Shown: piece after piece, positions 1-1,094 of the stretch
Layout of the letters: each line of letters starts with the position of its first letter
Position numbering within the stretch: the first letter of the stretch is position 1
NCBI RefSeq assembly: GCF_003334255.1
Contig: NZ_QOWU01000133.1
Source of the DNA: Escherichia coli
GTDB taxonomy: Bacteria; Pseudomonadota; Gammaproteobacteria; Enterobacterales; Enterobacteriaceae
Length of the DNA stretch: 2,469 nt
Direction: 5' to 3' (one strand)
Made by a program: the position numbers and the translations under genes
The notes under the pieces: generated by a model
The model's database searches: none
Told to the model about the DNA's origin: nothing
Seen by the model: the letters and a program-made list of their open reading frames with translations, nothing else

Positions 1-1094
1 CAGGTCTCGCCCAGCGTGGTGTTCACAAAGGTTTTCAGGCCGTTGGGATCTTTCAGTGCATCCAGCCAGTCATAGACAATCTGTACCCAGGTGGTGAACG
101 GACTGTACGCCGTCCAGATATGGAATGTGATGGAGCGCGGCGGCGGAATTTCATTACCCGCAGCGCTGAAAAACGTCAGGCCGTCACGGGTCCACATGCC
201 CGTGTTTTCACAGATCCACCGCCCGTTGCTCTGGTCAAGATCAGACTGATGGATCACGCAGCCATGATGTTCACAGAGGTAGAAAACACTTTCTGGACTG
301 TCCTTCTCCCATTTAAGGCCAAAAGGCGTGGACTCATCGCCAAATTTCAGATACTGCGCCTCCCCACAGTGTGGGCAGGGCACATAAAAACGCATGAAAT
401 GCGCCGACTCGTTGGCCGCTTTTTCGATCTGGCAGGAGCCTTTTATTTTAGGCGTCGAGCCGCGAATGGATTTTGGCCATACCGAGCCCTCAATACGCTT
501 ATCCCCCAGCAGGGTTGGCGAGCCCTCTTTTTCGACATCCGGCTCGAACGAGGAAAGTTCGTCATAGCAGACCACGTCCACGGATTTTTCACGGTAGTTT
601 TTGGCGGCAGCACCACCCAGGCACCAGAACCCCACACGGGACGTGAATCTTTTTAATGTCAGTGTGTTATCCCGGTGCTTACGCCCCAGCCAGGGGGAAA
701 GAATTTTCAGACAGGGAACATCCCGTAATGTTGACTCCACATGAGACTTCATAAAATCTTCAGCGGCAGAATCCGTAGGCTGAAACAGAAGACTGTTACG
801 GTTTTTATGCTCAATAAAGTAACCAATAACGCCCATCAGCATTTTGGTGTAACCGACTCGAGCTGATTTTATAAGATTAATTGTGCGGATCCGGTCATTA
901 CCCATGCAGTTCATTATTGCCACCTGAAAGGGCAACGTCTTCCACCGCCCAGCAAGATAAGAGGACTCCGGGGGCAAATAATAATTTTGATCGGCCCATT
1001 CAACGGTGGTTACAGGCAGTGGGCGTAAAAGCCCACGAAGTGCCACTCCACAAACAACAGCAAAGTTATTTAGCTGCTTCTCTGAGGTATTCAT
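1..1094 (-). CDS. A: Terminase large subunit (lambda gpA-like), N-terminal 364 codons; partial, 3' end lies beyond window start
   Basis: Hand translation of the minus strand from ATG at 1094..1092 is open to the window edge (register: plus triplets starting at positions divisible by 3). It reads [100 protein letters not shown]...[12 protein letters not shown]...[18 protein letters not shown]...[41 protein letters not shown]. This is colinear with my recalled lambda gpA N-terminus (MNISNSQVNRLRHFVRAGLRSLFRPEPQTAVEWADANYYLP...KSARVGYSKML...VDVAGYDELAAF...[17 protein letters not shown]...[12 protein letters not shown]), including the KSARVGY ATPase motif and the YDEL acidic motif. GGAG Shine-Dalgarno about 7 nt upstream of the ATG. 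Absent from the ORF track because it has no stop in the window. Confidence 0.9.

Follow-up and report, generated by a model that had tools for sequence, protein, structure and literature searches.

A lambdoid terminase large-subunit gene cut by the window edge, and the antisense shadow reading frames opposite the terminase genes, in an Escherichia coli prophage

The minus strand of positions 1-1094 of the window (the whole 2,469-nucleotide stretch of Escherichia coli DNA that was analysed) almost certainly carries the 5' part of gene A, 364 codons long, from a lambdoid prophage of E. coli; the gene specifies the large subunit of terminase (TerL, gpA family) and is cut by the window edge. With the same near certainty, the plus-strand open reading frames (ORFs) 120-656 and 881-1357 are non-coding shadows. 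The window as a whole is a lambda-type packaging/lysis junction in reverse orientation (Table 1). In biological terms this is a textbook packaging module of the lambda type and contains nothing novel; public records of E. coli prophages and of phages already include the terminase annotation. Its importance is one of annotation hygiene only.

Table 1. Features of the window, with strand and the evidence on which each was placed.
Feature	Coordinates	Strand	Basis
Gene A, 5' part (terminase large subunit, TerL)	1..1094	-	Open frame, Pfam, PHROG 15, same-start CDS in PhiR5_1 and E. coli JE86-ST05
GpA_nuclease, first 42 residues (323-364)	3..128	-	Pfam PF20454, E 4e-09, window fragment
Antisense shadow ORF, 178 aa, not a gene	120..656	+	Gene A codon register; no family match; stops in relatives
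GpA_ATPase domain, residues 47-293	216..956	-	Pfam PF05876, E 4.8e-55, model positions 3-247 of 247
Walker B and catalytic glutamate, 174-VVCYD-E179	558..575	-	Alignment and lambda motif
Walker A 76-KSARVGYT-83, with 'arginine toggle' R79	846..869	-	Alignment and lambda motif
Antisense shadow ORF, 158 aa, not a gene	881..1357	+	No family match; stops in relatives
Nu1 (terminase small subunit, TerS), 182 aa	1066..1614	-	ORF list, PHROG 57 (E 2.6e-67), annotated CDS
RBS GGAG of gene A	1102..1105	-	7 nt 5' of ATG 1094, within the Nu1 3' end; read from sequence
cosB	1637..1753	-	Alignment with lambda/phage 21 left ends, phage 21 annotation
Putative R1 TTTCATGTCGTAACT	~1637-1652 (bp ~150-166)	-	Position as annotated in phage 21
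Putative R2 TCTGATGTCGTTTCTT, inverted	1680-1695 (bp 108-123)	-	Position as annotated in phage 21
Putative IHF site I1 TAACTTATTGTTT	1717-1729 (bp 74-86)	-	12/13 match to lambda, 12/13 match to phage 21
Putative R3 AAGCATGTCAGTTCTT	1738-1753 (bp 50-65)	-	Position as annotated in phage 21
cosN, 12-base cohesive-end sequence GGGCGGCGACCT	1791..1802	-	Identical to lambda and phage 21
cosQ GGGTCCT	1826..1832	-	Identical to lambda and phage 21, same spacing from cosN
Spanin gene Rz, 5' side cut by right window edge	2170-2469	-	99 codons open to 2469, match to PHROG 13
Rz1, 61 aa, embedded in Rz, other frame	2232-2417	-	PHROG 3198

Reading frame and start of gene A

The reverse-complement translation of positions 3-1094 runs for 364 codons from an ATG with no stop codon, an open frame that far exceeds chance; the longest runs in the remaining two minus frames of 1-1094 are 69 and 37 codons. 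The initial annotation had described the minus strand as open from the ATG at 1094 to the window edge, a reading that an in-frame stop between 1 and 1094 would contradict. Such a stop was looked for, and none is present.

The nearest in-frame stop 5' of the ATG is a TAG whose first base is 1151. Between the two, the frame contains no ATG, GTG or TTG, so that ATG 1094 is the earliest possible start of gene A; an alternative upstream start was rejected for the same reason. The GGAG motif that precedes the ATG occupies the place equivalent to that of an annotated RBS in phage 21. The window holds codons 1-364 of 642 (bases 3-1094) and two bases of codon 365, and the remainder of gene A sits past the window edge. 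The ORF list, in which no minus-strand ORF above 64 aa appears over 1-1094, omits ORFs that run past a window end, and gene A is missing from it solely because its stop codon is outside the window. Plus-strand ORFs 120-656 and 881-1357 do appear in it.

Domains, motifs and family of the large subunit

The proposal of a gpA-like N-terminal ATPase domain was borne out by the search against terminase families that the initial annotation had recommended as a check. The 364-aa product matches the Pfam GpA_ATPase profile over essentially its full length and PHROG 15, 'terminase large subunit', with E 4.6e-198. It aligns without gaps to gp2 of phage 21 (OL657228.1, M81255.1; 85% amino acid identity over 364 residues) and, also gap-free, to lambda gpA (NP_040581.1; 69%), the reference member of Pfam GpA_ATPase/GpA_nuclease. 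Substitutions cluster at third positions of gene A codons, which account for 205 of 361 relative to lambda and 120 of 198 relative to phage 21.

In lambda, Walker A reads KSA-R79-VGYS, Walker B with the catalytic glutamate reads VAGYD-E179, and the lid residues are W327, D342 and T364 (PMC6379665). All the ASCE ATPase motifs of lambda, Walker A and Walker B as well as Glu179, are intact in the gene A product, and the three lid residues are kept too. Across the gap-free alignment with both lambda gpA and phage 21 gp2, Y46, K76-K84, D178, E179, W327, D342 and T364 are invariant. The nuclease domain, which the window enters for only 42 residues, is complete in the full-length 642-aa protein (residues 323-601, E 7.6e-71) taken from a 100%-identical genome; the extension of the contig that had been suggested for its recovery was thus achieved through an identical copy.

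A PDB sequence search with the gpA fragment (window 3-1094, minus strand) returned no chains at E <= 0.01, and the fold assignment consequently rests on profile and motif evidence. Likewise, an NCBIfam scan of all six window proteins gave no match, Nu1 and Rz included. NCBIfam appears to have no models for these phage families, and there is no conflict with Pfam or PHROGs.

The window encodes three parts of gpA. The N-terminal segment, which in lambda and phage 21 binds the small subunit, is followed by the ASCE packaging ATPase domain in full; of the endonuclease, 42 residues are included. By reference to lambda biology, gpA would bind Nu1, encoded directly upstream, and Nu1 would anchor gpA at cosB; gpA would then nick cosN, giving 12-nt cohesive ends, and would pump DNA into proheads using ATP. 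We infer the ATP-driven translocation of DNA and the nicking of cosN from the resemblance (69-85% identity) to the enzymes of lambda and phage 21, which have been characterised.

The same locus in public genomes and phages

The whole window is found at 100% identity in prophages of five complete E. coli chromosomes (JE86-ST05, JE86-ST02, UCPROB-001, UCPROB-002 and NCTC9112), and at 99.1% DNA identity in Escherichia phage PhiR5_1 (PV340545.1). Identity to PhiR5_1 is complete over 1-1575, which comprises gene A and nearly all of Nu1, and the 25 positions that differ all lie to the right of cosN (1811-2461). In the PhiR5_1 and JE86-ST05 records a terminase large subunit CDS of 1929 nt (642 aa) starts exactly at window position 1094, and the annotations of terminase A, Nu1 and Rz in PhiR5_1 and the identical prophages coincide with the window features. 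The gene order in these two records is Rz, cos, Nu1, A, W, portal, S49 protease/scaffold, decoration protein and major capsid protein. The context is thus of the lambda type: gene A overlaps Nu1 and adjoins cos (1637-1832), with W and the portal following in PhiR5_1 and JE86-ST05, and lambda gene A is likewise positioned after Nu1 and cos, with W and the portal downstream.

The state of these copies bears on whether gene A might be a decayed terminase pseudogene of a defective prophage, the 364 codons then being a remnant that contributes to no functional enzyme. Remnants of lambdoid prophages abound in E. coli: of 5426 complete genomes, 4557 match part of the window, at a median of 2 and a maximum of 14 places each. 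Moreover, some copies of this prophage type are decaying, since in E. coli TB06053 (92.8% overall identity) the terminase gene contains an internal stop and is marked as a pseudogene. In the 100%-identical genomes, however, gene A is a full, uninterrupted CDS (642 aa) that encodes both the ATPase and the nuclease domain in their entirety, its catalytic motifs are all intact, and the head-gene cluster around it is intact throughout. The cosQ, cosN and cosB elements are all present beside gene A and Nu1, and the phage identical over 1-1575 was deposited as a complete phage genome with E. coli C as host. Decay of the gene is therefore very improbable, and the 364 codons are read as the beginning of an intact gene A.

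At least 80% of the window in one place was found in only 33 of the 5426 complete E. coli genomes. The parts of the window are common among these genomes, and their combination is uncommon.

The plus-strand ORFs opposite the terminase genes

'Shadow' ORFs, antisense to a real gene and sharing its codon register, are a general phenomenon. The codons of gene A and of ORF 120-656 both begin at coordinates divisible by 3, and the coordinates thereby confirm that this ORF lies antisense to gene A in the same register, as had been proposed. In this register a plus-strand stop needs a TTA, CTA or TCA sense codon, these being the reverse complements of the stop codons. The full gene A contains ten such codons, with none between codons 148 and 438, and it is for this reason that ORF 120-656 is long; the earlier explanation of its length by a lack of complementary stops was therefore correct. 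The 291-codon open antisense run of gene A is reached in 6% of synonymous-codon shuffles (mean 191), and the antisense open runs in gene A of lambda and phage 21 are comparably long or longer. At the level of the window, the open run of the 120-656 frame has p ~0.04 in synonymous shuffles.

ORF 881-1357, which had been described as antisense to gene A, is so over 881-1094 only; beyond this it is mostly antisense to Nu1, whose 3' half it covers over 1066-1357. Its register differs from those of both gene A and Nu1. Its 158 codons compare with 110 +/- 24 in synonymous shuffles, of which 1.2% reach 158 (p ~0.012). The excess is mild and was put down to chance because the frame is broken in relatives.

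One or both of these ORFs could in principle be real antisense genes that overlap the terminase genes, an explanation that would accommodate their lengths (178 and 158 aa), the two low shuffle probabilities and the presence of the 178-aa product in GenBank as a hypothetical protein. In contrast, the open antisense run of the full gene falls within the expectation from synonymous shuffles (p = 0.06), and searches of PHROGs and NCBIfam with both ORFs matched no families. The database relatives of the two ORFs are solely 'hypothetical protein' calls at the same locus.

Comparison with relatives points in the same direction. Over 120-656, amino acid identity in the sense versus the antisense frame is 93% versus 78% for phage 21 and 72% versus 40% for lambda. 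In each of PhiR12_1, E. coli SHP24, TB06053 and KY204 the 120-656 frame has 1-2 internal stops, and these four relatives carry 14-25 amino acid changes in the plus frame as against 3-5 in gpA. The 881-1357 frame is interrupted by seven internal stops in phage 21, four in PhiR12_1 and one in SHP24. In SHP24, 16 of the 17 substitutions over this ORF are at synonymous third positions of the sense frame, with 13 amino acid changes in the plus frame versus a single one in the sense proteins.

Neither ORF, then, has a frame that stays open in diverged relatives, a sign of purifying selection or a similarity to a known family. No plus-strand genes are annotated at the locus in RefSeq (PGAP) or in phage records, and the database entries for the shadow stem from contigs cut inside gpA. 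Judged by these comparisons of sequence, a translated antisense gene is essentially excluded, and we give hardly any credence to real genes on the plus strand here; the identification of both ORFs as shadows, made in the initial annotation, holds.

The shadow ORF in public databases

The exact 178-aa shadow has been deposited in GenBank as a 'hypothetical protein' (GCW95982.1), and versions of 174-233 aa are also found there from E. coli draft assemblies. At 90% identity, the shadow cluster has 46 members of 126-233 aa from E. coli drafts, named 'hypothetical protein' or 'Uncharacterised protein'. The contigs that carry the 233-aa member are mostly shorter than 2 kb (64 of 76 index blocks), and in every contig inspected for this member the terminase gene is cut by the contig end. 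Lambdoid terminase sequence that matches the window recurs within single complete genomes, in as many as 14 places, and this repetition may be the reason for contig breaks inside gpA.

ORF finders that require a stop codon can miss a gene interrupted by the end of a contig, and a shadow in the same register is then the longest complete ORF left. The prediction that such a region would be misannotated as hypothetical proteins was right insofar as the shadow has been deposited. On the contigs in question, however, the truncated terminase was called alongside the shadow, so that the error consists of an extra, spurious gene and not of a missed one.

Nu1, subunit pairing and mosaicism

The last 29 nt of Nu1 overlap the start of gene A. 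The small- and large-subunit genes of phage 21 have the same 29-nt overlap and the same lengths. Nu1 is 62% identical to lambda Nu1 and 64% identical to phage 21 gp1, and it matches the solved TerS DNA-binding domains of PDB chains 6hn7 and 1j9i, its N-terminal domain having several relatives of solved structure.

The DNA identity to phage 21 changes markedly along the terminase genes. Over positions 1-600 of the window it is 89-100% per 100-base bin (mean ~94%), falling to ~72% over 601-1000 and ~50% over 1001-1300, and standing at ~73% over 1301-1600. The most divergent block, 1001-1300, covers residues 1-48 of gpA and residues 141-181 of Nu1. These first 48 residues of gpA are 50% identical to lambda and 42% to phage 21, whereas identity to phage 21 gp2 is 91% over residues 49-364. 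Similarly, residues 141-181 of Nu1 are 41% identical to lambda and 37% to phage 21.

The two terminase subunits of lambda, and likewise those of phage 21, bind each other through the N-terminus of gpA and the C-terminus of Nu1 (PMC4669245, PMC9026076). In the window these two segments have the look of a pairing module of another type that was inherited as a unit, and by analogy the pairing of subunits may not be interchangeable with that of phage 21.

The recognition helix of Nu1, RTIDRWQT (residues 17-24, window 1543-1566), differs at two positions from the RTIERWQS of phage 21. The recognition helix and the cosB R sites of lambda are less like those of the window than are those of phage 21, and on these resemblances the packaging specificity is probably 21-like. 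A tentative suggestion, which we consider rather doubtful, is that this terminase may constitute a further compatibility class among the lambda-like terminases. In that case subunits from lambda or phage 21 would fail to assemble with its own, and it might package DNA with a variant of the phage 21 specificity.

The cos site

As judged by alignment, the window contains a complete lambda-type cos site, with cosQ, cosN and a cosB of the layout R3-I1-R2(inverted)-R1. The interval from cosQ to cosN aligns gap-free to lambda and phage 21. The R sites were placed by alignment to phage 21 and lambda; a repeat finder run on cosB did not recover them, the sites being too short and divergent.

The R sites have G at bp 56, as in phage 21. 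At the critical bp 59 of R3 the window has A, phage 21 has G and lambda has C. R3 as a whole is hybrid-like, with a left half resembling phage 21 (CATGTC, G at bp 56) and a right half resembling lambda (GTTCTTCTT).

Among the differences from PhiR5_1, seven bases form a tight cluster at 1811-1818 (5811-5818 of the PhiR5_1 locus), between cosN and cosQ. On the packaging strand the cluster reads GATCCGGGCC versus ATATGGACCC, and cosN and cosQ on either side are identical.

Lysis genes and the interval after cosQ

Of the spanin gene Rz, the ORF list gives no more than a 53-aa piece that begins at an internal GTG (2170-2331). Rz1 is nested within Rz, as it is in lambda.

No convincing gene, RNA family or terminator was found in the 337-bp interval from cosQ to the Rz stop (1833-2169). 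Across the whole window Rfam returned no RNA families at E <= 1, and a scan for promoter and terminator consensus sequences gave counts at the shuffle expectation. A hairpin 3' of Rz (~2113-2135) was considered as a late terminator and dropped, its folding being no better than that of shuffles (z = -1.0).

The 1833-2169 interval is a variable cargo slot. Relatives carry insertions at this place: a YlcI/YnfO family gene in SHP24, a hypothetical gene in KY204 and a TonB-family gene in TB06053. Phage 21 has a TonB-family gene in the slot, as in TB06053, and in lambda the slot is occupied by about 2 kb that include bor.
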